64,000 nucleotides of DNA from a virus (taxonomy: Duplodnaviria; Caudoviricetes), in IMG/VR virus record IMGVR_UViG_3300014205_000205, positions 1 through 64,000 of that record. One strand, given 5' to 3'. Within the stretch, counting starts at the first letter, position 1; the number at the start of each line of letters is the position of its first letter. The notes below the pieces were generated by a model. It saw nothing but the letters and a program-made list of their open reading frames with translations. It made no database searches and was not told where the DNA came from. The position numbers and the translations under genes were made by a program. Below are positions 18,163 through 49,099 of the stretch, one piece after another.

Positions 18163-18978
18163 TCAAACATCGGTCAAGACGATCATACCGTCGCCTGTTT
18201 GTACACCGTTGAACATTATGGTATCCGTACCTGCCGAATAACCAGAACCGCCTGCTCCACTTCCTAAATTACTATTGGTTTCGGTATCGCCCGTGCCTCC
18301 GCCACCACCATAATAGCCGCCGCCGCCGCCGCCGCCATTGTAGCCGTACCCCGGATTACAATTACCGCCATTCCCTAAACTACCGTCATAGTGAATGCCG
18401 ATGCCGCCTGCTGATTGGGTACCTCCTGTAGCCGGGGTAACGGCAAAAGTAGTATCACCACCGCCGCCTGTCAAACCACCGCCGGCTCCGCCATCGCGAT
18501 GGCCACTACCGTTGTCTTCTGTGCCGCCTCCACCGCCACCGGCGACAGCTACCCGATTAGCTAAAGCGGTACCGCCTTGCCGCACATCGGAAGCCCCGCC
18601 ACCACGGCTAGAGCCGTTACCACCATTCCAGCCGCCAGATAGACCAGAACCACCAACATAGAGATTCAAGGTCTCGTCATGCGTGACTGTAATCTTAGTC
18701 TTGACATAGCCACCCCTGCCGCCGATGCCAATTCCCGATTGGCCCTGGGCACCATAGCACTCTATCCACATTCTTTTCCTGCCTTTAGGGACAACGAATG
18801 TCTGAAGTGCTCCGGTGTAATTAAAGGTCCAAGACAATGCCTGATATCCGGCGGCGGCCGGTATGGTGACAAGAGACGCGTCCGACAATGCCTTATTCGG
18901 AATTTCGACGAACCCCACTGTATCTGGAATCGTAACGCTAAAAGGCCCTGTAACCAATGGATTTGCTGTGCCGCGCAT
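18163..18978 (-). CDS. Glycine-rich domain protein (Gly_rich / ALK-LTK-like), putative tail appendage
   Basis: GAQGQSG..GGRGGYV..LNLYVGG..GGGASDVRQGG..RVAVAGGGGG; ATG 18978 after GGAG. Confidence 0.75.
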   Translation of the reverse strand: MRGTANPLVTGPFSVTIPDTVGFVEIPNKALSDASLVTIPAAAGYQALSWTFNYTGALQTFVVPKGRKRMWIECYGAQGQSGIGIGGRGGYVKTKITVTHDETLNLYVGGSGLSGGWNGGNGSSRGGGASDVRQGGTALANRVAVAGGGGGGTEDNGSGHRDGGAGGGLTGGGGDTTFAVTPATGGTQSAGGIGIHYDGSLGNGGNCNPGYGYNGGGGGGGYYGGGGGTGDTETNSNLGSGAGGSGYSAGTDTIMFNGVQTGDGMIVLTDV

Positions 18979-18980
18979 GG

Positions 18981-19334
18981 CTAAATTGTCTCCAGATAAC
19001 CGTAACCGATTACCTGGATAGACGTTGCTGTTACGGCATTGCCCACGATCGACTGTTGCGAGGTCGTGGAGGACATTACGATGGGGCCGAAGGCAATGGT
19101 TTGATTGGCTAAAATCGTTGTGTTTGTCAACCATCCGATGTCGGCACCGGAACTGGTGGCCCGATGTGAAACCGTAGCCTGAGCGTCCAAGGTGGTCATA
19201 TTGACTACATACACCGCCGTCACGATGGTCCTTACAGCGGTAGAAGGCCCAGCATAGATAGACGTTGCCGCACTCGTAGAGAGCGCAGTCGTATAGAACA
19301 GGAGCCCCGGCGTTGCCGCCGTGGACATGGCCAT
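18981..19334 (-). CDS. Small S/T-rich virion protein
   Basis: 117 aa, about 30% Ser+Thr by hand count. Confidence 0.7.
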   Translation of the reverse strand: MAMSTAATPGLLFYTTALSTSAATSIYAGPSTAVRTIVTAVYVVNMTTLDAQATVSHRATSSGADIGWLTNTTILANQTIAFGPIVMSSTTSQQSIVGNAVTATSIQVIGYGYLETI

Positions 19335-19346
19335 GGTTCACGCCCC

Positions 19347-28093: not shown

Positions 28094-28555
28094 TTACATC
28101 GTCTGGTACATTGCTTCTAAGTTCACACTCCAGAAGTAGTGGTTATTTTTGTCCCGATCCAGAAAGTTCGGCTGCGTCTGCAGCATCCGTAAATCCATGT
28201 ACACGTTTTGCAGAGGCACGTCGCCAGGCTGCCAAGGTATCAAGAATCCAAGTTCGGTCTCTGGGCTCGCGCTTTGGAGTGCGTCATTTACAGCCCAGGC
28301 CAGGTTTTGACCGCTCGTAAAGCCGTCAGAGCGCACGATGATGGAGATGTGCGGGTGACTGATCTGCATTGCGGTTCCCAACACACGATCTGGCGCCCGG
28401 CCCCGCTCCGCAATAACGAATACGCATTCCACCGGCACGCCGGTCCTGGCGTCCGCCGGACGCGGGCTACCATGAAATAGGTTGACGTTGGCGGTTAAGG
28501 CGGTGCTATGGGCGTCCAGGTAGTTTTCGATGTCCTTTCCCGGTCTGTGCGCCAC
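28094..28555 (-). CDS. Tail terminator-like protein, copy B
   Basis: MAHRPGKDIENYLDAHSTALT...; paralogue of 28573..28983. Confidence 0.75.
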   Translation of the reverse strand: MAHRPGKDIENYLDAHSTALTANVNLFHGSPRPADARTGVPVECVFVIAERGRAPDRVLGTAMQISHPHISIIVRSDGFTSGQNLAWAVNDALQSASPETELGFLIPWQPGDVPLQNVYMDLRMLQTQPNFLDRDKNNHYFWSVNLEAMYQTM

Positions 28556-28572
28556 TGATGACCGCCTCCGCA

Positions 28573-28983
28573 CTAAGTCGTCTGGTACACCGCTTCGACA
28601 TCCATTCGCCAGTGATAGTGGTTGTTTTTGTCTTGCCCTAACGGGTCTGGATGCGAATGTGGAATCTTCACATCAAGGTAGGAGTTGCCTGTGCTCGGGC
28701 TAGCGCTTTGCAGGGTCTCCATGACCTCCCAAGCTAGGTTCTCGCCACTGGTGAAGCCGCTCGACCGAACGATCACAGCGACATGCGGATGGCCGATCTG
28801 AATAGCGGTTCCTAGCACCCTGTCTGGTGGCGGCCCGCCGTCTGGCAGAACAAAGACGCACTCGACCGGCACGCTCGCGCTTACAGGTCGCACGATGCCT
28901 TGGAATAGGTTCGTCCCACCAGTTAGCGCTGTCGAGTGCGCATCCAAGTAGTTGAGGATATCGATTCCGGGCCGGTGTGCCAC
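28573..28983 (-). CDS. Tail terminator-like protein, copy A
   Basis: MAHRPGIDILNYLDAHSTALT...; position between gp10-like and tube genes. Confidence 0.75.
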   Translation of the reverse strand: MAHRPGIDILNYLDAHSTALTGGTNLFQGIVRPVSASVPVECVFVLPDGGPPPDRVLGTAIQIGHPHVAVIVRSSGFTSGENLAWEVMETLQSASPSTGNSYLDVKIPHSHPDPLGQDKNNHYHWRMDVEAVYQTT

Positions 28984-28994
28984 TTGTGATCACC

Positions 28995-29432
28995 TCATTT
29001 CGTGGCCAGGGCGGCTTTGGCAAGCGCCAGGATGTTGGCCGCGATCTGCGGAGCCCGTTCGTTGACAGGGTGCTCCAGGTACTTCCATGTGGTTGGCGGG
29101 TCGTGTCTCGCCGTTCGCTTCCCAGGGGTCCACTGCTCGGGATGCGGAGCGCCTTCTTCAGGCGATGGAATCTCGTGGACGTAGAGCGCGTACTTTGATG
29201 CAGCGCCGCCATATCCAAGCTCCACGAGGATCTGAGCGCCGACCTTCTGTGGCTTGGTCACATAGCCGGAGCTTTTGAGCGTGCCTGTATCCACCGGTAC
29301 CCGGCGTTTTGAGATGGCCATGATGTTGTTGGCTTCCATGTAGACAGCGGAGCTCAGCGCGACCTTCACTCGTTCGCCGTACCTCGCCAGGTTGGCTTTG
29401 ATCTGCTCCGCTCCGCTAACCGACCCCGCCAT
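28995..29432 (-). CDS. HK97 gp10-like neck/tail completion protein
   Basis: KRRVPVDTGTLKSSG, YALYVHE, KYLEHP. Confidence 0.85.
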   Translation of the reverse strand: MAGSVSGAEQIKANLARYGERVKVALSSAVYMEANNIMAISKRRVPVDTGTLKSSGYVTKPQKVGAQILVELGYGGAASKYALYVHEIPSPEEGAPHPEQWTPGKRTARHDPPTTWKYLEHPVNERAPQIAANILALAKAALATK

Positions 29433-29775
29433 CGCCGCCAACTCCTCCCAACCATATCTTCCAGTGGTCAGAACTACCGGCCTCGCCGATGCGGAGCGCC
29501 AGTGCGGACACGGACCACCCGGCGTTGGCGCTTGTCGTCTCACCTGGTAGGTAGAGTAACGAACTAATCTGCACATCTACCGAGGAACCGCAGACGATCT
29601 GCTTCGACGACATGACAGTCTCGCCCAAGAGATTGCGGACGTGGACCACCTTGTCGATGGCCCGGCCCAAAAACGATGTGGCTGCACTGTAAATGTTCTC
29701 GCCGTCGGTGTTAACACTGGTGGAGTTAGCGATGAGAAGTGTCTGCTTAAATTGGGCTTGTAATTGCCAATCCAA
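29416..29775 (-). CDS. Head closure (SPP1 gp16-like) protein
   Basis: Size, position and NTDGENIY..KVVHVRNLLGETVMS pattern. Confidence 0.65.
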   Translation of the reverse strand: MDWQLQAQFKQTLLIANSTSVNTDGENIYSAATSFLGRAIDKVVHVRNLLGETVMSSKQIVCGSSVDVQISSLLYLPGETTSANAGWSVSALALRIGEAGSSDHWKIWLGGVGGDGGVG

Positions 29776-30210
29776 TTAACCACTCCCCGTCGTAGAAGCG
29801 ATGGTGCCAGGGAAGTCATCCTGACCCATTCGGAAGTTGGGCTGCACGAAATCTGTGTCGGCATCGCGACTTTGCTTGGTGTTCTGTGACCGGCCGCCGA
29901 CAAACATTCCGGCCGATGCAGTCCCGCGCCGCCGCAATATAACCGCCTGTCGTTCATACGCTTTGGACCGTTGGGATGCTGAGATGTCCAACCCTTCGTT
30001 GCGTGTATCAACGTAGCTGGCCCAGTGCGCCGCCAGGTTGTCACAACAGATGGCCGCCGCCCGGTAGTGGTTAGCTTCGATGTTGGCCAGTACGGCACTG
30101 ATCTCTTCGTCGGCGAGGATAGCTGTCCCTGATACCGTTTCACCTGTATAGAACCGGACAGTGGACAGCCCGGAACTGCCGACATTCGACGAGTTATAGG
30201 TAAAAGTCAT
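29776..30210 (-). CDS. Head-tail connector (gp15/gp6-like)
   Basis: MTFTY..VRFYTGET..ILADEEI pattern; position. Confidence 0.75.
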   Translation of the reverse strand: MTFTYNSSNVGSSGLSTVRFYTGETVSGTAILADEEISAVLANIEANHYRAAAICCDNLAAHWASYVDTRNEGLDISASQRSKAYERQAVILRRRGTASAGMFVGGRSQNTKQSRDADTDFVQPNFRMGQDDFPGTIASTTGSG

Positions 30211-30608: not shown

Positions 30609-30854
30609 TCACGATCTGCGAGGCTTTCCTCTAGGCTTGGGCGCACCGAGGGCAGTCTCTTTCGGTTCTGCCAGGCCGGTCTTAGGTGGAGGCGTGTCTA
30701 CCGCTTCGCCGTCAACGATTTCCGCAATCCAATTCAGTCGGCGCATGGAGGCCTCGGTGCGATCTGAACCGATGTCTTCTGAGGTGATCTTGTCGCCCCA
30801 TTTGTAGTCGCCGCCCTGCAGTTTGATCGGAGTATGACGGACGGTGTAAATCAT
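30609..30854 (-). CDS. Small hypothetical head-module protein
   Basis: ATGA overlap with upstream stop; basic C-terminus. Confidence 0.6.
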   Translation of the reverse strand: MIYTVRHTPIKLQGGDYKWGDKITSEDIGSDRTEASMRRLNWIAEIVDGEAVDTPPPKTGLAEPKETALGAPKPRGKPRRS

Positions 30855-31819
30855 AACGCTACCCATGCCTCCTGCATGTACTGCTGGTTCTCCAGGGCGC
30901 CCAAGAGCTGCTGCTGCATATTGTTCAGCCGGGTCATCTCGGCCTGGACTTGGCCAAGGCGGGTCTGCAGCTCACCCTTGCGCGAGTTCAGCTTGACCAT
31001 CATGGCGTGGGCCTTTGGCTGCTCCCAGCCATAGAGGTGCGAGGTCTTCAGCAAATCGCTTTCCTGCGGCATGTAAACCCGCACGCCGGCCTGTTTGGCA
31101 ATGCCGAGGAAGTACTCGCACGACGGCCTTTGGGCGGCATACTCGCTGCCCTGGGCCATATCGACACCGTAGATGTGGATCTCTTGGAAGCCTTCGGATA
31201 GGGCCAGGGCCATCATGTAGCTGATCGAATTGGTGTAGTAGCCGCCGTACTTGGCGATCATCACCTGCAGCGGGTACTCAACGCTGTTTGGGATGTCGTC
31301 CCAGTGCCGCTGCATGTACACAAGGCACCCCAGAGCCGCCATCTTGGCAGCGTGTTCATTGGAAGCGTTGCGACTGTGGAAGAAGGGGTTGCCCGCGTAC
31401 TCCGTCTCGCGGCCGTGGATCTCAAACCAGCGCAGGCGGGCCTCTACTTTCGGCTTCGCCCACGGGTCCGAGCCATCTGCCATCCGCATGTCGTAGGCTT
31501 CGTTGAGGGACCAGAGCTCGAAGTCTGGGTCATCGAACGGCGCTTGGTTCCAGTGGCTGGCGAACCCGACGATGGCCACTTTCTTGATCTTGACGGGCGA
31601 TGCCGTCTTCGCCAGTTCCGCGGGCTCCTCTTCTACGACCGGAGCCTCGTTAGGCCGCTCTGGTTCAACGGGCATCGGGACAACCGGCTGCGCTTCGGGA
31701 GCAGGGGCGGGAACACTAGTCTTTTTCTTTTTGGAAACGTTCGGCTGGTGCACTCTCGTCCTCGACCTCGTAGCGCTCGGTGCAAGGTCCACGGAGTTCT
31801 CGGTACTCAAATGATTCAT
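30851..31819 (-). CDS. Putative sialyltransferase-fold glycosyltransferase (CstII/GT42-, GT29- or Maf-like)
   Basis: KKVAIVG, WSLNEAY, TNSISYMMALALSEGFQEIHIYGVDMAQGSEYA resemble CstII motifs as recalled (KKVIIAG, FRCNQFY, TSGVYMCAVAIALGYKEIYLSGIDFYQNGSSYA). Confidence 0.7.
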   Translation of the reverse strand: MNHLSTENSVDLAPSATRSRTRVHQPNVSKKKKTSVPAPAPEAQPVVPMPVEPERPNEAPVVEEEPAELAKTASPVKIKKVAIVGFASHWNQAPFDDPDFELWSLNEAYDMRMADGSDPWAKPKVEARLRWFEIHGRETEYAGNPFFHSRNASNEHAAKMAALGCLVYMQRHWDDIPNSVEYPLQVMIAKYGGYYTNSISYMMALALSEGFQEIHIYGVDMAQGSEYAAQRPSCEYFLGIAKQAGVRVYMPQESDLLKTSHLYGWEQPKAHAMMVKLNSRKGELQTRLGQVQAEMTRLNNMQQQLLGALENQQYMQEAWVAL

Positions 31820-32499
31820 GCCCCCTCGATGTTTTTCACTACCTGGTCGCCCCCGGCTAGGTAGTGGTCATTCAACTGCTTCCTGAGAAGCCATAGGCCG
31901 TAACGCTCTTGCTCTGGCGCATAGGGATCCGGCCGATTCACACCATGGACCCCGGTAAGCGCCCCCACGACGTGATACAAGCCCGACGCCAGGAATATCG
32001 CCTGGTAATCCTGCTTGTAGGTGTACATCGCCGGGTGGTGCCGATAGGGATTCGCAACCTTGTTGTCAGGCGCGAAGTCCCCGAGCAACAAAAAACCACC
32101 GTCTTTCACGGCGGCATCAATCTTTGCGACGGACTCCAGCAAACGGGACCGGTCTACCCAGTGCAGTACGTAGTTGACAATGACAAGATCAAACTGCTCA
32201 CCGATCCGCATGTCGGCGGCCGTGCTCTGGATGTACTCGATGCCCTGGTATCTGCTCCGGCCGTCCGCAATCGCCTCCGCAGACGGTTCCACAGCCACCA
32301 GACGCAGGGTGTTCGCCGTCTTGATCAGGTGCAGACGGTACCCGGTGGAGGCCCCGACTTCCAGGATGGTAGGCGGATCAAGGTGGTAGTCGCGAAGTAG
32401 CCGAATGGGCAGATCGTCGTGCAGTTTCGACATCGCTACGGCATTACGGCGGTAGTAGGCATCTGACTCGGTGCTGCTGAACACGTGGTCCTGCGTCAT
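31816..32499 (-). CDS. Class I SAM-dependent methyltransferase (similar to Pse-cluster-associated methylases)
   Basis: ILEVGASTG, VAVEPS, FDLVIVNYVLHW, GGFLLLGDF. Confidence 0.85.
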   Translation of the reverse strand: MTQDHVFSSTESDAYYRRNAVAMSKLHDDLPIRLLRDYHLDPPTILEVGASTGYRLHLIKTANTLRLVAVEPSAEAIADGRSRYQGIEYIQSTAADMRIGEQFDLVIVNYVLHWVDRSRLLESVAKIDAAVKDGGFLLLGDFAPDNKVANPYRHHPAMYTYKQDYQAIFLASGLYHVVGALTGVHGVNRPDPYAPEQERYGLWLLRKQLNDHYLAGGDQVVKNIEGA

Positions 32500-33476
32500 G
32501 AGGGCACCGCCTCGCACAGCGCTTCCAGGTCCTGCACCGACAGCCACCGGTCATTTACGTCTGAGGAGTACCGGAAGCCGGCCGGCAGCGGATCGCCTTG
32601 GGCCTGTTCTGCCGTCCACCAGGGGTGTTGGGGTTGTACGACATACACCGGCCCGGCGTCAATTGTGTGGGCGGTCTCCTCATCAGAGAGCAACGCCTCG
32701 CCGAGCTTTTCGCCCGGTCTGATGCCGGTAACCATGATGGGCACGCCTGGGGCAATCGCTTGCGCCAGATCTGTAACCTTCATGCTGGGCAGTTTGGGAA
32801 TGAAGATCTCGCCGCCCTGCATGTGCGTCAGGGAGTACTTCACTAGGTCTGCGGCTTGAGGTAGAGACAGCCAGAACCGGGTCATGCGGGGGTCCGTGAT
32901 GGTGATGCGCCCGGTCTGGGCCAGCTGGCGGAACAGCGGCACCACGGAGCCCCGAGAGCCTACGACGTTTCCGTATCGACAGGCGCTAAACGAAGTCCGT
33001 CCGGGGCTGTAGGCATTCCCTTGAATGAACAGATCCTCCGCCACCGCCTTGGTCTTGCCGTAGAGGTTGCTCGGTGAGCAGGCTTTGTCGCTGGAAACCA
33101 GCAGGACCTTCTTGACCCAACCATCAATTGCGGCGTCGATGACGTTCTGACTGCCTTGGATGTTGGTTTTGACGGCCTCGGCCGGGTTGTATTGGCAAGC
33201 CGGAACCTGTTTGAGCGCCGCTGCGTGAATCACTATGTCGACCCCGGCGAAAGCCCGTTCCAGCCGGTCCTTGTCTCGCACGTCGCCAATGAAATACCGG
33301 ACGACACTCCCTGTGTCATCTGGCCACCGCGCGCGCATCTCGTGCTGCTTGAGCTCATCACGACTAAATACAATCAACCGTTTAGGATTCTGCGGCAGTA
33401 TTTTTTGAATTAATTGGTGTCCCAGTGATCCGGTTCCACCGGTGATCAGGATCGTCTTGCCTGTAAAGAGCCCCAC
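32496..33476 (-). CDS. pseB: UDP-N-acetylglucosamine 4,6-dehydratase (PseB/FlaA1 type)
   Basis: GGTGSLG, FSRDELKQHEM, IGDVRD, HAAALKQVP, SSDKA, RYGNVVGSRGSVVP, GIRPGEKL. Confidence 0.92.
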   Translation of the reverse strand: MGLFTGKTILITGGTGSLGHQLIQKILPQNPKRLIVFSRDELKQHEMRARWPDDTGSVVRYFIGDVRDKDRLERAFAGVDIVIHAAALKQVPACQYNPAEAVKTNIQGSQNVIDAAIDGWVKKVLLVSSDKACSPSNLYGKTKAVAEDLFIQGNAYSPGRTSFSACRYGNVVGSRGSVVPLFRQLAQTGRITITDPRMTRFWLSLPQAADLVKYSLTHMQGGEIFIPKLPSMKVTDLAQAIAPGVPIMVTGIRPGEKLGEALLSDEETAHTIDAGPVYVVQPQHPWWTAEQAQGDPLPAGFRYSSDVNDRWLSVQDLEALCEAVPS

Positions 33477-33494
33477 TAATAATCGCCCCAATCT

Positions 33495-33527
33495 ATAAAG
33501 TAAGGAGGAGGCGCCTGCCCCCTCCTT
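33495..33527 (-). terminator. Terminator-like hairpin upstream of pseB
   Basis: AAGGAGG.../CCTCCTT stem then ACTTTAT on - strand. Confidence 0.5.
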
Positions 33528-33539
33528 CAAAACTCGAGC

Positions 33540-34241
33540 CTACGAAATCCCCGAATGATTCCCGCTTGACGACACGACCAACCAACGCGTGGATGAGGCC
33601 CCGACCAAACGAACAAACTGGTCAAGAGCATCGAACGTCAGGATGGTGCCCGTCGAATCGAATGTTTGGACCGTTGAGGCCGTTGTGACCGTGTGCGCCT
33701 TCGTAGTGTTGGCGATGTTGTAGATGACCTTTTGGACACCGGCCACGGGAGCACTGATGGTCACGGCCATCTGCGACGTGTTGCTCAGAACGCTGATGCC
33801 GTATGCAGTTAGCACACCACTTGTGGTCGCCACCGTCTGCAGGGCCTGAAACAATCCACCGGAGAGGGTGGCAGTACCGGTAACTGCCAAATTGCTAGAG
33901 CCGGTAAGCGTTCCGCCCACTCCAAAGGTGCCAGCGATGGTGCCGTTGCTGGAACCGGTGATGGTCTTGGAAACCGTGAGTCCGCCGCTCACCAGGGCGC
34001 TACTCGATGCCGTAAGCGTGCCGCCAATCGTAGCGGCACTCGACCCGGTGATGGTTTTGCTGACAGTCAGCCCGCCCGAGACCAACGCACTGGAAGAGGC
34101 GGTGAGCGTCCCACCGACGGTTGCCGCTCCTGAACTGACAACAGCTCCCGAGACATTCAATCCGGATGACAGCGTCACCGCTCGCTCGAACGTCGCCGGA
34201 GACTCAAAATACTCTGTTTGCCGCCGATTGATACCCGCCAT
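33540..34241 (-). CDS. S/T/G-rich capsid decoration or fibre protein with internal repeat
   Basis: Directly after MCP; 76/233 Ser+Thr. Confidence 0.75.
   Translation of the reverse strand: MAGINRRQTEYFESPATFERAVTLSSGLNVSGAVVSSGAATVGGTLTASSSALVSGGLTVSKTITGSSAATIGGTLTASSSALVSGGLTVSKTITGSSNGTIAGTFGVGGTLTGSSNLAVTGTATLSGGLFQALQTVATTSGVLTAYGISVLSNTSQMAVTISAPVAGVQKVIYNIANTTKAHTVTTASTVQTFDSTGTILTFDALDQFVRLVGASSTRWLVVSSSGNHSGIS
33948..34127 (-). repeat. Two tandem 90-bp coding repeats (30 aa, 29/30 identical)
   Basis: AAT(V/I)GGTLTASSSALVSGGLTVSKTITGSS x2; DNA copies differ at many synonymous sites. Confidence 0.9.
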
Positions 34242-34299: not shown

Positions 34300-35262
34300 T
34301 CAGGCGACGCACGCATTGAAGAACGCAGCGCAGTCCGCGGCGACGACCTTCTGGGCGTAGGCCATTTCGCCTTCAATCCGATCCGAACGCTTCAGGTCGA
34401 TCCGGAAACGGCTGATGACGGAGCCGGACTGATTGGCGCCCAGATACCCGGTCCAGTCGAATGTGTAGCCGGCAGACGGCATCAGAAGGCCCGGAGACGG
34501 AGCCGAGTAGCAGAGCAGGGCATGCTTGCCGTAGAGGAATGACATGGAGGCGTTTGCCCCCTCAACAGCGGAGTTCTGCACGGCATAGGGCACCAATACC
34601 CGGTCGACGTCAAACAGGGCCGGAAGCAGATCCAGAGTGACAACACCGCGCTGGACGTGCTTGATCCGGTCGATGATGTCCGGGTGATGGCGCAAGGCGT
34701 CAAAGACCTGCGGGCCGATCACCAGGGTGTTGGGTTTGTAGCCGGTGTTCTGCGAAACAGCGATGGACTGGGCGGTGACGTCCTCGATTGGCGTGCTGGA
34801 GTTCGTGCCCCACTGGGTGCCGACGGTGATGTCGGTACCGGTGGTGGAGCCTGTCCAGATGCCGGTCGTGAAGAAGTTCGTCACCCAATCAGCTTCACGC
34901 TTGATCAAAAGCTGATGCGTCACCCACTCGGTAGCATCCCGGTCCATGTCGAGCGGCGCATCGGCATTGGCCCGGGTCTGATCGTCGATATCCTTGTGGA
35001 CGGCAACCACGTTAGCCGAATACACGTCTGTGCTGTTGGAATAGCCGCTGCCAGCCGACTCGGTAGCCGGGGCCCGGACCTTGGCCTCAGACCGATGCCA
35101 GTATTCCTTGGGGTACGTAAAGAACTTGTCGGATTGCTTGCTGACAGGGACGCGCGGGAAGGCTGTCCCGGCGATAAAATTGGTAGCCCTCTGGAGGTAT
35201 GCCACGCTGATGTTAGTCAGCGGCCGGTTTACATGTACTTGGTTAATGGACGGATCAGGCAT
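34300..35262 (-). CDS. Major capsid protein (gpE-like HK97 fold)
   Basis: LTNISVAY, FPRVPV, EAKVRAPATE, LIKREADW, KPNTLVIGPQVFDALRHHP; position after scaffold and decoration. Confidence 0.9.
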   Translation of the reverse strand: MPDPSINQVHVNRPLTNISVAYLQRATNFIAGTAFPRVPVSKQSDKFFTYPKEYWHRSEAKVRAPATESAGSGYSNSTDVYSANVVAVHKDIDDQTRANADAPLDMDRDATEWVTHQLLIKREADWVTNFFTTGIWTGSTTGTDITVGTQWGTNSSTPIEDVTAQSIAVSQNTGYKPNTLVIGPQVFDALRHHPDIIDRIKHVQRGVVTLDLLPALFDVDRVLVPYAVQNSAVEGANASMSFLYGKHALLCYSAPSPGLLMPSAGYTFDWTGYLGANQSGSVISRFRIDLKRSDRIEGEMAYAQKVVAADCAAFFNACVA

Positions 35263-40891: not shown

Positions 40892-41551
40892 TCACCTCCC
40901 CAGTAGCTCCCGGTAATCGGTGTGTCCGGGTTGAACACTCTGGTGCAGGGCCCGGATTAGGTCGAGGTCGGCAGGCGTGTCCAACGTCCACCGCAGCGAC
41001 GATGTGTCACCGGTGGAGGACACGTTGACGGCCCCGAAGCGCCCGGGGGCGTGCCATAGATACGGTGTAACGTGCTCTCGGTCAAACTTGCTGCCTGCTT
41101 CGTCCCAGGCTGTTTGCAGAGCAGCGATGCTCATGACTTCGCAATCCAAGCCGTCCGGGTAACTCGGCGGGTGCACGTTGCTGGCATACTCACAACCGGC
41201 CGCCTGGAACTCCTGGATGACCCGAGACACCACGGTGGGATCGAGCAGCGGGCAATCGGCAGTAATGCGCACCACAACGGTGAGGAGGTGCAGGGCTGCC
41301 GCCTTGAAGTAGCGGTCCAATACATCCGTCTCGTCACCGCGGTAGACCCTGACACCCCACTCCCGGCACTTGGCCGCGATCGCATCGTCCTTCTGTTCCC
41401 GGCTGGTGGCCACGACAATGCGCTCAATCTCGGGAACGAGCTTCACCCGATCAATGACGTGACGGAGAACCGGCTTCCCGCCAAGATCCATGAGGACCTT
41501 ACCAGGAAGCCGGGTGCTGCCCATGCGGGCCTGTATAATCGCGCCGATCAT
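40892..41551 (-). CDS. spsF: Acylneuraminate cytidylyltransferase, SpsF type
   Basis: IIQARMGSTRLPGKVL, RGDETDVLDRY, VRITADCPLLDP, REHVTPY, LRWTLDTPAD. Confidence 0.92.
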   Translation of the reverse strand: MIGAIIQARMGSTRLPGKVLMDLGGKPVLRHVIDRVKLVPEIERIVVATSREQKDDAIAAKCREWGVRVYRGDETDVLDRYFKAAALHLLTVVVRITADCPLLDPTVVSRVIQEFQAAGCEYASNVHPPSYPDGLDCEVMSIAALQTAWDEAGSKFDREHVTPYLWHAPGRFGAVNVSSTGDTSSLRWTLDTPADLDLIRALHQSVQPGHTDYRELLGR

Positions 41552-41656
41552 ACCCAAATAAAGCGCCCCTCTACGAAAAAGCGGCCCCGCACCCGTGGGC
41601 ACAAGACCTCATCATGGAAATTGTAGGGGATTCGACCCCCCGAAAACTGCAAACCT

Positions 41657-42121
41657 TCACGTTCCAGAACGAGAGAAGATAATCCCCTCGTCCCAGTACG
41701 CCAAGGCCAGAGCCAGCAATCCCTTATTGGCGAGGTAGTACACGTTCCGCTCGCTCATATGCAGCTCAAAGGCCACGCCGGTCGCCGTGTATCTGCCGTC
41801 CACCAGGAGCATCTGCAAGACCTGTCGGGTCTCACTTTCGAGGCTGGGCAGAGTGTCATCAATCCAGCGGACGCGTTCTCGTTTTTGCGCAACAGTCTTG
41901 TTTTGGGCCAGGGCAGACGCTCGACTTCCTACCGGGTCACCCGGGCCCCCGTTTTGTATTCCTGGTGTCTCGTTCACCGGCGAGGCGAGAATGACGTCCA
42001 TCTCGGAAACCGCCGCCTGCTTTTTGTGCCTCTGGTAGTGGCGCAGTTCCTCGCGCACGAACCAAAGGTAGTGCGCTTCTATGACACAGCCATCGATGTG
42101 GAATAGGCCAGAACGCCGCAA
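41657..42121 (-). CDS. RinA/ArpU-like late transcriptional activator
   Basis: GDPVGSRASAL, C-terminal sigma-70 region 4-like HTH GVAFELHMSERNVYY; TTTGCAGTTTT just downstream. Confidence 0.7.
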   Translation of the reverse strand: MRRSGLFHIDGCVIEAHYLWFVREELRHYQRHKKQAAVSEMDVILASPVNETPGIQNGGPGDPVGSRASALAQNKTVAQKRERVRWIDDTLPSLESETRQVLQMLLVDGRYTATGVAFELHMSERNVYYLANKGLLALALAYWDEGIIFSRSGT

Positions 42122-42133
42122 GCGACCGCCCCC

Positions 42134-43183
42134 TCAGATATTCACCACGCGCCCGGTGTCCGATGCCTTGCGAGCGGCCTCCACGATCTGAACGGCTCTT
42201 AACCCGTCCTCGCCCGTCACCAAGGGCTTTTCCTCACCGCGGATGCAGGCCAGGAAGTGCCGTAGTTCGGCCCGGTACATGTCGTCGGGATGGAACGGTT
42301 GGGCTTGCCCTTGGTGCTCGTAGGTGTGCTTCCCGGCTTTTTTGGACACCTTGACTACCCACGCGTTGAAGTTCCAGTCAATACTCCCGGTATCTCCGAC
42401 AATCCGGCATCCTCGCTGTGCTTCTTGGTCCAAGTAGTCCAAGTGGATGCTGGCCTGGACTCCACTCTCAAACCGCACTACCAGGTCGGCGATATCCTCC
42501 GTCTCGATCTGCAGAGCGCCCGAGTTCTGCATCGTGCAGGATACGCTCACAGGCTGCCCGAACAGCCAGCAGGCGTAGTCCAGTTCATGGCTGGCATCCA
42601 TGAGAATGCCGCCCCCGGTTTTCCGTGAGGCGGCATAGTTGGTACGGTAGTCGATCCCTGGGCGCCAGTCTGGCAGATAGGATCCGAAGTGGATGGAGGC
42701 GTGGCGGACCGTGCCAATGGCACCGGAGTCGATGATCCCCTTCGTTCGGCGTAGGCCGGGATGGAAACGCAAACAGTATCCGACGAGAAGGGGCACCTCT
42801 TCCGTGTCAGCATGGAGGAGGATATGTTCGGCATCGTTCAGATCGTGGGCCAATGGTTTCTCGATCATCACCGCCGACATTCTGCCGTCCACGATGGCTT
42901 CCCGTGCGGCATCATAATGCAGATGGTTCGGTGTGGCGATGATAGCGCCATCGTATTGTTCGCAAATGCCGCGGTAGGTGCCCCAAACCTTGAATGGCCA
43001 CTTGCACCCTTGTTTTTCCGAGATTGTCGGCGACCCGTATTCCCTGTATAGCGCCAATCCCGCCCGCGGATCCGTATCGCAAGCGTCGACTTCCACCCCC
43101 ATCTCTTTGAGCAGTCGAATGTGCCGGCGTCCGATGGAGCCGCAACCCACGACCAAGATCTTCAGGGGCTTATCATTTGGCAA
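42134..43183 (-). CDS. Gfo/Idh/MocA oxidoreductase
   Basis: ILVVGCGSIGRRH, IIATPNHLH, MIEKPLA, GGGILMDASHELD; TTG start after GGAGG. Confidence 0.9.
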   Translation of the reverse strand: MPNDKPLKILVVGCGSIGRRHIRLLKEMGVEVDACDTDPRAGLALYREYGSPTISEKQGCKWPFKVWGTYRGICEQYDGAIIATPNHLHYDAAREAIVDGRMSAVMIEKPLAHDLNDAEHILLHADTEEVPLLVGYCLRFHPGLRRTKGIIDSGAIGTVRHASIHFGSYLPDWRPGIDYRTNYAASRKTGGGILMDASHELDYACWLFGQPVSVSCTMQNSGALQIETEDIADLVVRFESGVQASIHLDYLDQEAQRGCRIVGDTGSIDWNFNAWVVKVSKKAGKHTYEHQGQAQPFHPDDMYRAELRHFLACIRGEEKPLVTGEDGLRAVQIVEAARKASDTGRVVNI

Positions 43184-43614
43184 GTCATTGTTACCTCCGT
43201 CTCTGTTCGCCTGGTCTCCGCGTACCCAGCCTGGGCGAAGGCCTTTTGGGATGCTGTGTTCTCCGTCTTGATCACAGCCTTGATGGTCTTGACCCCAACC
43301 TTCTGCATCTCGGCGTTTCCCAGCCGCAGTATTTCTGCCCCCACTCCGCAGCCACGATGGCCCGGCGCCACCGTCACACTGACGAATGCCTCGCCACCCT
43401 CGACGTCGTAGCGGACGGTACCCAGCGAAAGACCGGCCCGCCGAGCGATGAACAGGCGCCGGCTCGAATCCTCCATAACATTTCGTAGCCACTGGAGGTG
43501 CTCTTTCCACGAGACGGGCTTCGAGTCGAACATCATCGCCCTAGTGGTCGGATGATTGCGCCAGACGTACAGCAGCGATGCGTCCTCCATAATAGCTCGT
43601 CGCAGAGCGGTCAT
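43162..43614 (-). CDS. GNAT N-acetyltransferase, PseH-like
   Basis: LLYVWRNHP, VSWKEHLQW, VAPGHRGCGVG, ENTASQKAF. Confidence 0.85.
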   Translation of the reverse strand: MTALRRAIMEDASLLYVWRNHPTTRAMMFDSKPVSWKEHLQWLRNVMEDSSRRLFIARRAGLSLGTVRYDVEGGEAFVSVTVAPGHRGCGVGAEILRLGNAEMQKVGVKTIKAVIKTENTASQKAFAQAGYAETRRTETEVTMTCQMISP

Positions 43615-44435
43615 CGGATCTCCCTCACAAGCTGGAAGGCTTCGGCGGCCATCAGGCCGGACTGGGCGCCCCGGAGCATGGCCTGCGCCCGCAGGGCCTC
43701 TGGCGATCGCGGGTGCGGAAACGGCCGCCGCTCAGTCTCATACATCTCCATGGCTTGAATCTTCTTCTCCAGGTAGTCACCCGAGATGTCCACGAAGGTG
43801 GTAGGCCGGAATGCCGGTTCCGTGCTGAAAGCCCATTCGGTCGAGCTGGCCACCTCGTAGGCATAGACACTCTTTACGGAGCAGCCCGGAACCGGCCGCG
43901 TTGCGATCAGAGTAGCATGCGCCATTGCCCGGTGATCCTGATTCAGGTCCCCAATGTGATGGGTATACACCACTTCTGGCTGGTATAAGTCGAGCAGGTG
44001 CTTGATAACTTCAGAGATGTCCAAGCCGCCGATTGTGTCCAGACGTTGGTCTGGCAAGTTTCCGAAGCTAACGATGGAAGCTCCTAGAAACTTGGAGGCG
44101 TTATCAGCTTGACTCATCAACGTCTCTAGTTCTGCCGTTGTCGTCGTGCCTCGTGATGTTAGGCCGGTTGCCAGTATGCCGATGCTTACCTCGTGGCCCT
44201 CGGCCGCCAGGCGGGCAATGGTACCGCCGCATCCAAGGCACTCATCGTCTGGATGTGCGGCCAAGACGAGAATCCGCTTGCTTTTGGCGCTCGGCTGACG
44301 CGGCGCTACCATGGCTTGGTCGGCCTTACACACATGGCAGAAATTCGGACCACCGCACCGCATCTGTTTCCCGTCGGGACGGGGGAACACCCGCCCGTGT
44401 CCGCTATTTGGATTAGCTGGATTGTAACGTTCCAA
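43611..44435 (-). CDS. PIG-L/LmbE family N-deacetylase with small N-terminal Cys-rich extension
   Basis: AAHPDDECLGCGG, VYTHHIGDLNQDH, KKIQAMEMYETE, AEAFQLVR. Confidence 0.9.
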   Translation of the reverse strand: MERYNPANPNSGHGRVFPRPDGKQMRCGGPNFCHVCKADQAMVAPRQPSAKSKRILVLAAHPDDECLGCGGTIARLAAEGHEVSIGILATGLTSRGTTTTAELETLMSQADNASKFLGASIVSFGNLPDQRLDTIGGLDISEVIKHLLDLYQPEVVYTHHIGDLNQDHRAMAHATLIATRPVPGCSVKSVYAYEVASSTEWAFSTEPAFRPTTFVDISGDYLEKKIQAMEMYETERRPFPHPRSPEALRAQAMLRGAQSGLMAAEAFQLVREIR

Positions 44436-44451
44436 GTAAAATACGTCCTTT

Positions 44452-45099
44452 CTAAGCCCACCAAGTCTGATGGGTGTCCAAGTCCAATAGAGAAAGGCGC
44501 CCTCCCCAGACGGCGCCCGTGTCGATGCCTATTTTGTCGGGTCCGCGCCACACCTCGTAGCTGCCGTGCAGCAGATGCGTCGGTGTGTGGCCGAAGACCA
44601 CTCGTTTACCGCGGTAACCCTCGTGGAACTCCCCGCGGATCCAAAGGAGGTCATCTGGTGTCTGTTCGCTCAACGGAACTCCCGGCCGCAGGCCCGCATG
44701 GACGAGGATGCAGTCAGGCTCCTCGTGGTAGAGTGGCAAGCCGGCGAGGAAGTTGACCACGTGGTCCGGGATAGCACCGCCGAAGTCTGCCATAGTTTTG
44801 TCTCCGCCTTGTTGCATCCACACTTGGCGGTCCCACTCGCGCATCCAGGCATGGCGACTTGCATCTCCTTGCAGGTAGGCCAGCATTACAGCGTCGTGGT
44901 TGCCAAGGACGGCCTTCGCCCCTCGGTCTACCAGGTCCATCACAAGGTGAATGGTTGAGGCCGCGTCCGCCCCTCGGTCCATGTAATCGCCCAACAAAAA
45001 AAGCCGGTCGCTCTCCGGCTTGTAGTGGGCCATATCCAGGATTTGCAGCAGTCGATGTCCTTCGCTGTGGATGTCTGCCACGGCCAGCCTACGACCCAC
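44452..45099 (-). CDS. Calcineurin-like metallophosphoesterase (Ser/Thr phosphatase type)
   Basis: DIH, GDYMDRG, GNHD, VHAG, VFGHTP, IDTGA. Confidence 0.9.
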   Translation of the reverse strand: MGRRLAVADIHSEGHRLLQILDMAHYKPESDRLFLLGDYMDRGADAASTIHLVMDLVDRGAKAVLGNHDAVMLAYLQGDASRHAWMREWDRQVWMQQGGDKTMADFGGAIPDHVVNFLAGLPLYHEEPDCILVHAGLRPGVPLSEQTPDDLLWIRGEFHEGYRGKRVVFGHTPTHLLHGSYEVWRGPDKIGIDTGAVWGGRLSLLDLDTHQTWWA

Positions 45100-46033
45100 G
45101 GCGAATCTCCTCCAACACTTGGGCCAGGCGTTCCTTGCGGGATTTGGGGTGCCAGTCTAAATGTGGTGAAGGATATAGATTCATCGTCGGTTGCTTCACG
45201 GCGCCACAGACGACCGAGGTTCCCGGCACTAAGCCGGTGATTTCATGGGCAAGTACGGCCAGGCTGCATGTTTCCGACCCGGTGACATCGGTGGTAAGGC
45301 CCTCCGCCCAGTTGGCATTGAAGGGCGTCCATTTGACGGCGGCCAAGAAAGCGCCAGCAACATCCTCGATGTGCATGACGTTGAGCGGCAATGGGTAGGG
45401 CGCGGTCACCCGCACTTCGCTTTTGGCCAAGGCGTCCCGGCATATTTGGTAGACAACGCCTTCTCTGCGATCTCCGCCAAACACTCCGGGCAGTCGCAGA
45501 ATCGAGACGGTCAAGCCCTGTTTCCTACCCATTTGAAGAACCTGTTCCGCAGCCAACTTACTGGCCGCGTAGTGATCCAAAGGATCAGCGAGGAGTTCAT
45601 CATCGCACGTACCGCCATAAGCCAGAACGCCGTATACCGCCTGCGTGCTGGCAAAGATCAGGTGCTTTACCCCAGCCTTAAGGCAGTAGTCCAAGACGTT
45701 GGCCGTTGCTACTACGTTGTCACGGTACAGCCGGGCGATGTCGCAAGGCCCGGGTACGGGCGGCAAATCGGCCCCTTCGGGATTTGGCAGAAGGCTGATG
45801 TCTACCCGCCCCGCCAGGTGGATGACGACGTCGGGCGGCCGCTCCTCGATCAGTTTGCCAAAGCCCTTGGACAAGTCGCAGAACCATCGCCTCTCCGGCC
45901 CTCCCGCATACCGCCGCACATGTGGCTCGTTCGGCCAGTTGCACAGCGGTATGGCGTAGTGACCAGCCTTCTGCAACTTCGGCACCAGATGCCTGCCAAT
46001 ATAGCCTTCCGCCCCGGTGACTAGGATTCTCAC
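45089..46033 (-). CDS. NAD-dependent epimerase/dehydratase (extended SDR)
   Basis: VTGAEGYIG, VIHLAG, FASTQAVYG, YAASK. Confidence 0.9.
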   Translation of the reverse strand: MRILVTGAEGYIGRHLVPKLQKAGHYAIPLCNWPNEPHVRRYAGGPERRWFCDLSKGFGKLIEERPPDVVIHLAGRVDISLLPNPEGADLPPVPGPCDIARLYRDNVVATANVLDYCLKAGVKHLIFASTQAVYGVLAYGGTCDDELLADPLDHYAASKLAAEQVLQMGRKQGLTVSILRLPGVFGGDRREGVVYQICRDALAKSEVRVTAPYPLPLNVMHIEDVAGAFLAAVKWTPFNANWAEGLTTDVTGSETCSLAVLAHEITGLVPGTSVVCGAVKQPTMNLYPSPHLDWHPKSRKERLAQVLEEIRRGS

Positions 46034-46062
46034 GCGTTACACTCCTTTTACAGGCGGACGTC

Positions 46063-46308
46063 TCAGCCGCGCAAGATCTTATCGACGGTCGTATACGTTT
46101 CAAGCACTTCCCGCCAATCGTCGCCATAGCGTCCAAGAAGCGCCGTGGCTTTACGCAACCAATCACCGTGAGCATATCTTTTCCAGTCAGGGTGGTTTCC
46201 GATGTGCTCATAGCCCCATGAGCACTGGTCAATGTGACTGAGCTTACAGAAACGCTCATGCAATTCGATCGCAACCGATTGCTCAGCAGTCAAGCTCATG
46301 CGTTCCAC
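46063..46308 (-). CDS. Hypothetical protein
   Basis: 81 aa ORF overlapping the upstream stop. Confidence 0.55.
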   Translation of the reverse strand: MERMSLTAEQSVAIELHERFCKLSHIDQCSWGYEHIGNHPDWKRYAHGDWLRKATALLGRYGDDWREVLETYTTVDKILRG

Positions 46309-47273
46309 CCCTTCGGCGCCCGCTCTTTGAAGTCCGCCTCACTCATGATCCCGTCATGCGTCTGCCTGACCAGGACCACACCCTCCCGCCACTCGCCAAA
46401 GGTGTACGGCCGCCCCAGGGCCAATTCGATCAGCCCGCCAACCTCATCACAGCCGGCCGCGATCGTCAGGTTGACCGTGCCGCTGAACCTCGGATTGATC
46501 TCGAACACATAGGGTACGCCATCCCGCATCCGAAGTTGCACGTTGAAGGGGCCGCACGGGTTCAGCTTCTCGGCGATGTCGCGGCACACCTGGTCAATGG
46601 CTTTGTTGCGCCGGGTGACGGCCAGCCGCGTAGAGCCTCTCTTGTCGATGATCTCCTTTGGCACCACGGCGTGAACAGTGTTGCGCTGGTCGCAGACGAC
46701 GGAGACGGTGTACTCCGGGCCGTCGATGTACTCCTGGATAATGAGCGCATCAAGGTAGCCCGCGGTTTCGGCGTGAGCCAATCCCTCTTGGCGGGACCGG
46801 ATAATCGCTACTCCGCGACTGCCTCGCCCTGTACGCGGCTTAATTACCCATGGATATAGCAAATCAAATGGGGCTGTATCGTCGATGGTTTTCGTTCTGT
46901 TATACGTGCGAGGGACCGTGACGCCGATGCCGCCCAGGACGCGCATTAGTTCTCGCTTGTCTAGGCAGGCGCGGATAAAGGTCTCCGTTGGAGTAAGCAC
47001 TTTGGACGGATTAGCGGCTTTGAACAACGCCGACTCTTCGTCCACCAGCGGAATGGCTATATCAACTGACTGGCGAATGCAGAGGTCCATCATAGCAAGC
47101 ATGTAGCCATTGTCCGTCGCTTTTGGCACAACAAAACCCCCATCGCCCAGGTATAGCCCAGGTGCATGGGGGTCCGTGTCGCAAGTTAGTACTCGATGGC
47201 CTCGGGACTGCAAATGGCGGATCAGATCAGGTATGGCGGCGCCGCCCGCACCTGTAAGTAATATGGTTGCCGT
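46296..47273 (-). CDS. ATP-grasp amide ligase (CPS-like), apparent ACG start
   Basis: TILLTGAGGAA, VIKPRTGRGSRGV, IQEYIDGPEYTV, FEINPRFSG; frame bounded by TAA 47276-74. Confidence 0.88.
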   Translation of the reverse strand, partial: TATILLTGAGGAAIPDLIRHLQSRGHRVLTCDTDPHAPGLYLGDGGFVVPKATDNGYMLAMMDLCIRQSVDIAIPLVDEESALFKAANPSKVLTPTETFIRACLDKRELMRVLGGIGVTVPRTYNRTKTIDDTAPFDLLYPWVIKPRTGRGSRGVAIIRSRQEGLAHAETAGYLDALIIQEYIDGPEYTVSVVCDQRNTVHAVVPKEIIDKRGSTRLAVTRRNKAIDQVCRDIAEKLNPCGPFNVQLRMRDGVPYVFEINPRFSGTVNLTIAAGCDEVGGLIELALGRPYTFGEWREGVVLVRQTHDGIMSEADFKERAPKGWNA

Positions 47274-47278
47274 TTAGA

Positions 47279-47497
47279 TTACCTCCACATTCTTGTCTGC
47301 GCATCATTCAATTTGCGCAACGTATCTTGAATGCTCTGCCACTCCTTTGAAAGGTGGCGAAGCCGGTCTGTTTCTGCCACAACCTCAGCCGTCCTCCGCT
47401 TCTGGTCTTTATCCATCCTGTGAATCAAATACAAACTCAACGGTAGGGATAAAGCCATCGATACCAAAGCGACAAGAGGAACCACCCACCAATTCAT
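47279..47497 (-). CDS. Small single-TM protein
   Basis: N-terminal hydrophobic helix plus coiled coil. Confidence 0.6.
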   Translation of the reverse strand: MNWWVVPLVALVSMALSLPLSLYLIHRMDKDQKRRTAEVVAETDRLRHLSKEWQSIQDTLRKLNDAQTRMWR

Positions 47498-48537: not shown

Positions 48538-48538
48538 C

Positions 48539-48778
48539 TCAGACTCTCCTCCCATCCATCCTACGCACACCCGGGAACTGACGAGATATTGCCTCCCAAA
48601 ATGACCGGGCGGCCTCATCTGGTACGTACCCAGGACCGAATGCTACCTGCCCGGTTCCCAAGTGGATCTTGACCATACCATTTCCGATGTTGATGTGGCC
48701 ATACAGAGCAGGAGCCGCCGTTATACCCATGCCTCCCAAGGCGGAAAGCGGCATTATGACTTCGCGGTCGTCGCCCAT
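48539..48778 (-). CDS. Small hypothetical phage protein
   Basis: 79 aa; YVPDEAARSFWEA. Confidence 0.6.
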   Translation of the reverse strand: MGDDREVIMPLSALGGMGITAAPALYGHINIGNGMVKIHLGTGQVAFGPGYVPDEAARSFWEAISRQFPGVRRMDGRRV

Positions 48779-49095
48779 ATGGCTCTCGCCTCTTTCTTAA
48801 TCTCAACGTTGCCGTGAAGCACTTCTTCGCAAGCTCCTTCTTCACAGGAACACCGATGGACCGATGTTGCCCGGTCATCCTCGGCGCAGAAGTGGACCAC
48901 AAATCCATTCGGACCGGCCAGCGCCTCCGTCGTCAGCAGAACCTTGTTGCCATTGAGGAATACCTCTACCGTGGTTGTCTCCGCTTCCTTGCGATCGGTC
49001 TTAAAACGCAGGGCTGTGTGATCCGGCCCTTGCCGCGGGCCACTCGGAAACGGCTCGGGATGACAGCGCCGGCACCGACATACATGCTCGGCCAT
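48754..49095 (-). CDS. Cys-rich hypothetical protein
   Basis: HVCRCRRCHP and HRCSCEEGAC; GGAAGGGG RBS. Confidence 0.6.
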   Translation of the reverse strand: MAEHVCRCRRCHPEPFPSGPRQGPDHTALRFKTDRKEAETTTVEVFLNGNKVLLTTEALAGPNGFVVHFCAEDDRATSVHRCSCEEGACEEVLHGNVEIKKEARAIWATTAKS

Positions 49096-49099
49096 GGTT

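Follow-up and report, generated by a model that had tools for sequence, protein, structure and literature searches.

How does a tailed phage that appears to make its own sialic acid-like sugar put that sugar to use? The question is raised by a gene on the minus strand at 30851-31819 of a 64,000-nucleotide stretch of DNA (the window; positions 1 to 64,000 of IMG/VR record IMGVR_UViG_3300014205_000205, an 84-kb viral record of the Caudoviricetes), which lies among head genes and whose product carries sialyltransferase-like motifs. We consider it probable that this 322-residue product is a cytidine monophosphate (CMP)-nonulosonate transferase with the type of fold seen in glycosyltransferase family 42 (GT42) and in Maf proteins, and that it O-glycosylates virion proteins, probably the head fiber-like protein encoded at 33540-34241. 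Gene context is the strongest evidence. The gene, its parts, and the small open reading frame (ORF) that follows it are listed here.

30851-31819, minus strand: putative CMP-nonulosonate:protein transferase gene; 322 residues, unnamed phage family, GT42/Maf-type sialyltransferase fold
31589-31819, minus strand: N-terminal residues 1-77; a basic patch, then a Pro/Glu-rich disordered linker; low complexity, 13 Pro and 9 Glu, predicted local distance difference test (pLDDT) score 50-70
31034-31588, minus strand: putative catalytic core, residues 78-262; Rossmann-like alpha/beta domain, pLDDT mostly >90
31139-31168, minus strand: motif G218-V-D-M-A-Q-G-S-E-Y227, presumed CMP/phosphate-binding center; aligns with G152-I-D154-F-Y156...S-S-Y162 of CstII
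30854-31033, minus strand: C-terminal long amphipathic helix, residues 263-322, with an invariant G307-A308 pair; modelled as one helix, 264-320
30609-30866, minus strand: small ORF, 81-85 residues, whose start overlaps the transferase stop; no family match

Three motifs were picked out in the original prediction: KKVAIVG, WSLNEAY, and a 33-residue stretch TNSISYMM...GSEYA. These begin at residues 79, 103, and 196 of the ORF, and they are not there by chance, because they form the most conserved columns of a family of 3,701 representative clusters. No Pfam, PHROG, or NCBIfam model matches the protein (Pfam was searched to E 10). A word-indexed search returned 1,081 family proteins, none of them named or assigned a Pfam domain for this region, and an exhaustive search returned the 3,701 clusters, defined at 50% identity, of which 2,048 match at E 1e-10 or better. 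Family members occur at 399 loci in IMG/VR, the closest homolog (P0001) is 81% identical, and the Atlas neighbors of the transferase are 100% viral. By these sequence searches, the transferase is placed in a very large, unannotated, phage-restricted family. An alignment of 40 of its members (A1) has a core of ~185 residues with 25 invariant positions. The N-terminal extension varies from 3 to 100 residues across the same 40 homologs, and in the window it is indeed the Pro/Glu-rich linker of about 75 residues that had been described. The C-terminal coiled coil also stands, as a single long helix whose hydrophobic 7-residue repeat (277/284/291/298/305/312/319) is kept across the family and in which G307, A308, and W319 are conserved. 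In the original prediction, the enzyme is possibly recruited by way of this element. A homodimer prediction with two copies of residues 76-322 scored 0.17 against a mark of 0.42, which gives no verdict on oligomerization through the helix.

The fold was compared by sequence and by structure. A search of the Protein Data Bank (PDB) with the single sequence reached CstII of Campylobacter jejuni only at E about 1.3. With the family profile, 9 of 9 matches were GT42 sialyltransferases (CstII, CstI, and the Pasteurella multocida enzyme 9C08), at E values between 0.009 for the best and 0.8, with an alignment that spans the N-terminal KKV-I-G strand through the GVD motif. Foldseek, given the AlphaFold model (overall pLDDT 84), places CstII at the top (probability 1.00, E 5e-4). 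VIA-align, run over 48,161 chains, gives CstI (2p56) a Z of 10.6 over 154 residues (root-mean-square deviation, rmsd, 3.3) and the central catalytic domain of a Maf protein (5mu5, residues 272-499) a Z of 10.2 over 154 residues (rmsd 3.0), with GT29 sialyltransferases at Z 6.1-6.7. The core thus has both the single Rossmann-like, modified GT-A fold of the sialyltransferase type that is characteristic of GT42 (the CstI and CstII matches) and the fold of the Maf central catalytic domain (the 5mu5 match). The parallel to Campylobacter CstII that had been drawn from the motifs is borne out by these searches. The further claim, that the fold is shared with GT42, Maf, and GT29, holds for the first two and moderately for the third, from which no sequence match came in the profile-to-PDB search; by sequence, the protein belongs to none of GT42, GT29, and the Pfam Maf/MptE-like family. 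It had also been asked whether the best structural match might be an unrelated enzyme such as an MptE kinase. The best are GT42 and Maf, then GT29, and the thiamine pyrophosphokinase and MptE-like folds lie clearly below the best.

The residues that hold CMP-sialic acid in CstII can be followed into the family by sequence alignment. N106 corresponds to N31 of CstII, S198 to S132, D220 to D154, and Y227 to Y162, and all four are invariant or nearly so. Within the presumed CMP-binding motif, G218, V219, M221, and E226 are invariant in the 40 sequences, and conservation is 90% or higher at D220 and Y227. In CstII, Y156 and Y162 assist the departure of CMP (bioRxiv 10.1101/2023.08.01.551455), and the position of Y156 is taken in the family by a nearly invariant alanine, A222, as judged from the sequence alignment only. 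More than 30 homologs of 375-650 residues (among them P0121, P0125, P0130, P0133, P0142, P0147, P0174, P0177, P0233, and P0265-P0285) are interrupted in the G218-VDMAxxSEY227 motif by an element that starts with Cys and ends in His-Asn followed by Ser. These intein-type insertions occupy two sites, before S225 and after Y227 in the numbering of the window copy, which has no intein. The intein call is based on the junction motifs and on a single precomputed match, a LAGLIDADG_3 domain in one interrupted homolog; no Pfam intein domain was found in P0121 or P0130. Inteins lying inside the motif are independent support for its importance.

A candidate donor is suggested by the genome itself, in which sugar genes are interleaved with the packaging, head, and tail genes as listed.

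47494-48618, minus strand: NeuB-family nonulosonate synthase; NeuB 8.7e-82 plus SAF domain
42134-50353, minus strand: sugar-tailoring genes between terminase and portal; class-III aminotransferase, ATP-grasp ligase, short-chain dehydrogenase/reductase (SDR) epimerase, metallophosphoesterase, PIG-L deacetylase, Gfo/Idh/MocA oxidoreductase
40892-41602, minus strand: CMP-sugar cytidylyltransferase, for the activated donor; CTP_transf_3 6.3e-35
34300-35262, minus strand: major capsid protein of the protein-E type; phrog_1005 5.2e-87, Phage_cap_E 2e-06
33540-34241, minus strand: Ser/Thr-rich fiber-like protein, proposed acceptor; 233 residues, 32.6% Ser+Thr, directly after the capsid gene
32496-33530, minus strand: PseB, UDP-N-acetylglucosamine 4,6-dehydratase (inverting); TIGR03589 418.6 bits (cut-off 407.75), Polysacc_synt_2 4.8e-95
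31816-32547, minus strand: S-adenosylmethionine-dependent methyltransferase; Methyltransf_25/12/11 at E about 1e-10, coupled (ATGA) to the transferase
29776-30210: adaptor-like gene
28995-29576: gp10-like gene
28573-28983, minus strand: tail terminator; matches PF12691
27426-27839: tail tube

Read along the minus strand, the late operon begins with the large terminase and continues through the class-III aminotransferase, NeuB-family synthase, ATP-grasp ligase, SDR epimerase, metallophosphoesterase, PIG-L deacetylase, Gfo/Idh/MocA oxidoreductase, and cytidylyltransferase to the portal, a Mu-F-like protein, the scaffold, and the capsid protein, after which come the Ser/Thr-rich 233-residue protein, PseB, the methyltransferase, and the transferase gene. 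Since the sugar genes lie on the same strand and between terminase and portal, they are part of the late structural operon. PseB is the first step of a pseudaminic acid (Pse)-type pathway, and from its gene content the phage is predicted to encode a nonulosonate pathway of this type together with extra tailoring enzymes. The synthase scores 340 bits against NeuB_NnaB and 297 bits against PseI, each below its own equivalog cut-off. The methyltransferase, which in fact probably begins with the ATG at 32499, has a weak match to TIGR03587, a Pse-associated methylase. Its stop overlaps the transferase start codon (ATGA), with GAGGGGG shortly upstream. The transferase gene is therefore coupled in translation to both of its neighbors. 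A head gene, as had been claimed, is not demonstrably among them, the upstream partner being the methyltransferase and the downstream one the 81-85-residue ORF without a family match. Its location in a head-completion block stands, between the major capsid gene and the head-tail joining and tail genes.

Two side observations concern this operon. A 154-residue ORF at 41657-42121 (minus strand) has a faint match to sigma-70 region 4 (E 0.029), and on that resemblance it may be a late regulator placed between the oxidoreductase and cytidylyltransferase genes. The genes at 28094-28573 and 28573-28983 (minus strand) are adjacent paralogs with clearly similar sequences, the second matching the tail terminator family as listed, and the pair has the look of a tail terminator gene duplicated in tandem.

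The link to a phage-made CMP-sugar extends beyond the window. Profile searches of 27 whole viral records of at least 20 kb that carry a homolog found NeuB in 19 of them, CTP_transf_3 likewise in 19, and both in 6 of the 6 records that are at least 90% complete. At some loci the homolog is physically joined to the pathway: it adjoins NeuB (L047), it lies in the order NeuB, homolog, NeuC, cytidylyltransferase (L054), or it sits within a cluster of NeuB, SDR, cytidylyltransferase, transketolase-like, and FkbM-methyltransferase genes (L030, L036). The pathway type varies among relatives, with NeuC in 8 of 28 records and a PseB/LegB-type dehydratase in 7 of 28. Among deposited phage records, by contrast, tblastn with the window NeuB finds only 3 of 50,697, one of them a Moritella contig. 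The other pathway proteins of the window are divergent, and tblastn with them found almost nothing in 80 loci with 10-kb flanks. No GT2, GT4, or GT52 gene was found in this genome, and none above the cut-off in four complete relatives; given this and the linkage to NeuB and the cytidylyltransferase, the family is thus the only recognizable transferase candidate for the phage-made CMP-sugar. As a separate observation, the transketolase-type cluster is an alternative sugar cluster beside the head module at five loci (L024, L026, L030, L035, and L036), comprising NeuB, a short-chain dehydrogenase, a cytidylyltransferase, a transketolase-like protein with both thiamine-diphosphate domains, and the FkbM methyltransferase, and it may make an unusual ulosonic acid.

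What, then, would receive the sugar? Synteny was surveyed in the 80 best of the 399 IMG/VR loci, 68 of which have enough upstream sequence. The typical order is capsid protein, one gene (rarely two or three), the transferase homolog, a small ORF, head-tail adaptor, and head closure, with a recognized capsid gene at most 4 genes upstream in 53 of the 68 loci and exactly one intervening gene in 43. Small ORFs of 60-110 residues, like the one in the window, come after the homolog in many related loci. At least four capsid families occur in this arrangement (HK97, Phage_capsid_4, Mu gpT, and the protein-E type of the window), and because they are unrelated, the arrangement is not simply the vertical inheritance of one head module. 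The intervening genes encode proteins with a median Ser+Thr content of 23.7%, compared with 13.3% for other ORFs (Mann-Whitney p 1.6e-19, with identical proteins counted once and kinship ignored). The genomic linkage known for Maf, to nonulosonate genes and to a Ser/Thr-rich structural neighbor, is accordingly found here as well.

In the window, the intervening position is held by the 233-residue protein encoded at 33540-34241. Its C-terminal domain of ~95 residues is common to proteins of 19 other loci; in the resulting set of 20 relatives, 17 are encoded by the gene directly upstream of the transferase, 2 lie two genes upstream, and the remaining one follows the capsid gene at a locus whose transferase has shifted to the sugar cluster. 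Proteins of this fiber family (L002-L077, alignment A2) have a variable repeat region and often a Ser/Thr C-terminal tail, and their genes nearly always lie between those of the capsid and the transferase. The window protein is modelled as a disordered repeat region with a confident beta-sandwich at 134-226, which matches phage tailspike and baseplate (gp10-type) domains (Z 11.6-10.8) and, at Z 8.6, the spike on the capsid of phage Pa223, and which also resembles the ends of many viral fiber proteins. Its Atlas neighbors include proteins with trimers of the T4 gp9/10 type and the collagen type. By analogy with flagellin and Maf, we infer that this protein would be a trimeric head fiber or spike and the most likely acceptor. 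An iterated hidden Markov model of the fiber family did not unite it with the other Ser/Thr-rich neighbor clusters c7, c33, c34, c47, c63, and c86, and several unrelated acceptor-like families may exist. Of the original claim that the enzyme attaches a phage-made nonulosonate to virion proteins, the donor side is supported across the family by the NeuB and cytidylyltransferase counts, and the acceptor side only indirectly, through the order of capsid, Ser/Thr-rich fiber, and transferase.

Taken together, these features suggest the following sequence of events. The phage would make its own CMP-activated nonulosonic acid, here of the pseudaminic acid type, with PseB, the NeuB-family synthase, and the cytidylyltransferase, and the sugar would be tailored further, probably by methylation through the coupled methyltransferase. 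A soluble, late-expressed transferase would bind the CMP-sugar in a cleft formed by the Gly-rich strand-loop KKVAIVGFA, N106, the N197-S198 segment, and the G218-VDM...SEY227 motif, and would transfer the sugar with inversion to hydroxyls of Ser/Thr-rich virion proteins. Glycosylation would take place in the cytoplasm, before or during head assembly, and the likeliest acceptor would be the fiber-like protein encoded directly after the major capsid protein.

Several observations weigh against this reading. The loci in both the co-occurrence and the synteny counts share ancestry and are not phylogenetically independent, adjacency to a Ser/Thr-rich protein does not show that it is the acceptor, and 8 of the 27 contigs lack NeuB, all eight being 28-68% complete. 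The protein has no match to PF01973 (MptE-like/Maf) or PF06002 (CST-I) at E up to 10. Genome-level scans at E up to 10 also left both models unmatched, and no control genome matched PF06002 either, so that this is a weak negative, as is a scan with PF07922 in which the control genomes were likewise unmatched. The lid of ~34 residues in CstII is reduced to about 11 in the family. The general base of GT42 is His188 in CstII and His202 in CstI (PMC4202792), and the 40 sequences contain no conserved His between D220 and the C-terminal helix, where it would fall; the only invariant His of the family, H135, is elsewhere in the chain. With the GT42 His lacking a counterpart and the lid reduced, the chemistry may therefore differ from that of GT42, and from sequence conservation H135, E226, E235, or D255 could serve as the catalytic base. 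The missing His would also fit a protein that is not a glycosyltransferase but a nucleotide-binding kinase or regulator of the thiamine pyrophosphokinase, MptE, or SteA fold, or a head-assembly factor that has kept the fold only. Fold alone does not prove function, and VIA-align gives SteA a Z of 8.6, TPK1 7.4, and other thiamine pyrophosphokinases 6.1-6.5, while Foldseek gives the Bacillus subtilis enzyme (3lm8) a probability of 0.99. In the nearest Pfam-labelled Atlas cluster, 16% of the members carry PF01973 MptE-like, which at a score of 0.80 is no more than a lead, and the long C-terminal helix recalls scaffolding-type helices. Yet the sequence profiles single out GT42 enzymes, with no sequence match to thiamine pyrophosphokinases; the top two structural matches are both nonulosonate transferases; the conserved counterparts are the residues that bind CMP-sialic acid; and it is the putative active-site motif that inteins have invaded. 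The gene context is sugar synthesis and not cofactor synthesis, and neither a kinase nor an assembly role explains the near-obligate co-occurrence with NeuB and the cytidylyltransferase. We regard a protein without transferase activity as very unlikely.

The two other alternatives keep the enzyme and change its substrates. A nonulosonate transferase might act on the host surface (lipopolysaccharide (LPS) or lipooligosaccharide, capsule, flagellin, or S-layer) as part of an auxiliary metabolic module by which the infected cell is remodelled, superinfection exclusion being one example. Viral neuA/neuB/neuC clusters in Lake Biwa viral genomes were read in this way in print (bioRxiv 10.1101/655167), the reading agrees with GT42 enzymes that sialylate lipooligosaccharide (PMC4202792), and the fold evidence fits it equally well. 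What makes it rather unlikely here is that the gene stays between the capsid/fiber and head-tail adaptor genes in at least 4 unrelated capsid families and consistently adjoins a Ser/Thr-rich, fiber-like gene, that sugar genes in a late packaging and head operon would be poorly timed for remodelling a cell near lysis, and that the AlphaFold model, a soluble alpha/beta core with one helix, shows no membrane segment or export signal. Alternatively, a transferase of the same fold might use another donor, such as host CMP-ketodeoxyoctonate (Kdo) or a host-made nonulosonate, or might build an oligomer on the fiber processively, in the manner of a polysialyltransferase. The varied pathways to which relatives are tied (NeuC, PseB/LegB-type, transketolase-like plus SDR) mean that donor specificity must vary, Maf enzymes accept N-acetylneuraminic acid and Kdo (PMC11339370; bioRxiv 10.1101/2020.06.03.131540), and CstII itself is bifunctional. 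The only homolog in a cultured phage, a distant one with 30% identity in the complete genome of Microcystis phage Mvi-Yong1342-1 (PP496355.1; L001, 11908-12711), precedes the small terminase in a genome without NeuB, which also counts against the general link to a phage-made donor; distant branches may use host donors or do something else. For the phage of the window, both variants are unlikely: it has a full set of synthase and cytidylyltransferase with the transferase coupled to pathway genes, and nothing in the sequence points to processivity. We therefore continue to favor a transferase that moves the phage-made nonulosonate to the virion.

The position of the Microcystis phage homolog before the small terminase had also led us to consider a DNA-modifying enzyme, a candidate that we rejected in view of the fold, the counterparts of CMP-site residues, and the linkage to NeuB. 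The same homolog is annotated as a 'type 11 methyltransferase' yet aligns with the transferase core. A 105-member viral cluster has a Methyltransf_11 domain fused to a domain of the transferase fold (TM 0.62), and the annotation is probably wrong, having been carried over from such fused relatives.

Outside viral databases, the family has 29 matches in GTDB genomes, all in metagenome-assembled genomes (MAGs) of widely differing phyla and mostly on short contigs. These MAGs (L082-L110) include Dehalococcoidia, Gracilibacteria, Planctomycetota, Saccharibacteria, and one Bathyarchaeia bin, and the matches on short contigs are probably phage DNA that was binned into them. At one locus (L092), the homolog is inside a 6-Mb Acidobacteriota chromosome, and the locus may be a prophage. 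Elsewhere in the window, in the tail region, a 392-residue protein at 18163-19341 (minus strand) has a match (E 2.9e-20) to PF12810, the ALK/LTK glycine-rich domain, an unusual one for a phage.

It is about an even call whether these loci represent a widespread virion sialylation module in tailed phages of many bacterial phyla, in which a phage-only transferase without the canonical His and a capsid-adjacent Ser/Thr-rich head fiber are fed by several types of nonulosonic acid pathway and place self-made sialic acid-like sugars on capsids. The literature searched contained no account of this family, nor of any phage that makes nonulosonic acids and attaches them to its own virion. Where nonulosonic acids occur on flagella, capsules, and LPS, they control how cells are recognized by the immune system, how they adhere, and how phages adsorb. 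If the reading is true, thousands of unannotated viral proteins would gain a function, and phage neuB/neuA and neuABC clusters would be virion structural-glycan genes rather than host-directed auxiliary genes. A sialic acid-like coat could then have a role in stability, in escape from grazing or immune clearance, in adhesion to mucus or biofilm, or in masking from host defenses. A compact (~250 residues), soluble enzyme that O-nonulosonylates protein and comes with its own small acceptor would be useful in glyco-engineering, and the missing catalytic His makes the family of interest for the mechanism of inverting sialyltransferases.

Among known systems, the glycosylation of mycobacteriophage virions (Che8/Corndog type) is the closest in concept, with a phage-encoded glycosyltransferase presumed to modify the phage's own capsid or tail proteins, as we propose here. 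The mycobacteriophage enzymes are hexosyl transferases of the ordinary GT-A/GT-B kinds and draw on nucleotide sugars of the host, and their host range is actinobacterial. We know of no nonulosonate pathway and no GT42/Maf fold in mycobacteriophage virion glycosylation. Papers on mycobacteriophage genomes refer to the idea of such virion glycosylation (e.g., PMC11256854). In Caulobacter, FlmG is a protein O-glycosyltransferase that moves Pse or legionaminic acid (Leg) from its CMP-activated form to Ser/Thr of a structural filament protein, but it belongs to a different, modular enzyme class (PMC7591256; bioRxiv 10.1101/2022.03.25.485807), unlike the window transferase, and a FlmG-like structure is not among the VIA-align fold matches listed, which is not evidence of absence.

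The GT42 enzymes (CstII and CstI of C. jejuni and P. multocida 9C08) are the sole PDB relatives that could be detected by sequence, and no structure matches the fold better; by sequence alignment, they share with the family the Gly-rich N-terminal strand and the counterparts of N31, S132, D154, and Y162. The window transferase differs from them in the missing CST-I model match, the reduced lid, the change of Y156 to Ala, and the lack of conservation of His188/His202, with an identity of 11-16%, and the acceptors of GT42 are lipooligosaccharide galactose or sialic acid, not protein.

In setting and proposed action, the nearest counterparts are the Maf flagellin O-glycosyltransferases (PF01973; 5MU5 from Magnetospirillum magneticum), whose catalytic-domain fold is like that of the window transferase. 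Maf proteins are cytoplasmic, are encoded with Pse/Leg biosynthesis genes, and modify Ser/Thr of a surface-exposed, polymerizing structural protein (PMC11339370). The association with a methyltransferase is common to flagellin glycosylation islands (TIGR03587) and to the window. Maf is built from an N-terminal Rossmann-like domain, a central domain, and a C-terminal helical bundle (PMC11339370), whereas the window protein is modelled with a disordered N-terminus, a lone alpha/beta core, and one helix of 57 residues, giving a single-domain protein of about 250 residues against about 630 and without a PF01973 match. Its proposed acceptor is a phage virion protein, not flagellin, and its family is virus-only. 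The window transferase thus falls outside Maf and GT42 in sequence, architecture, and catalytic His, but in the action proposed for it, it is likened to both.

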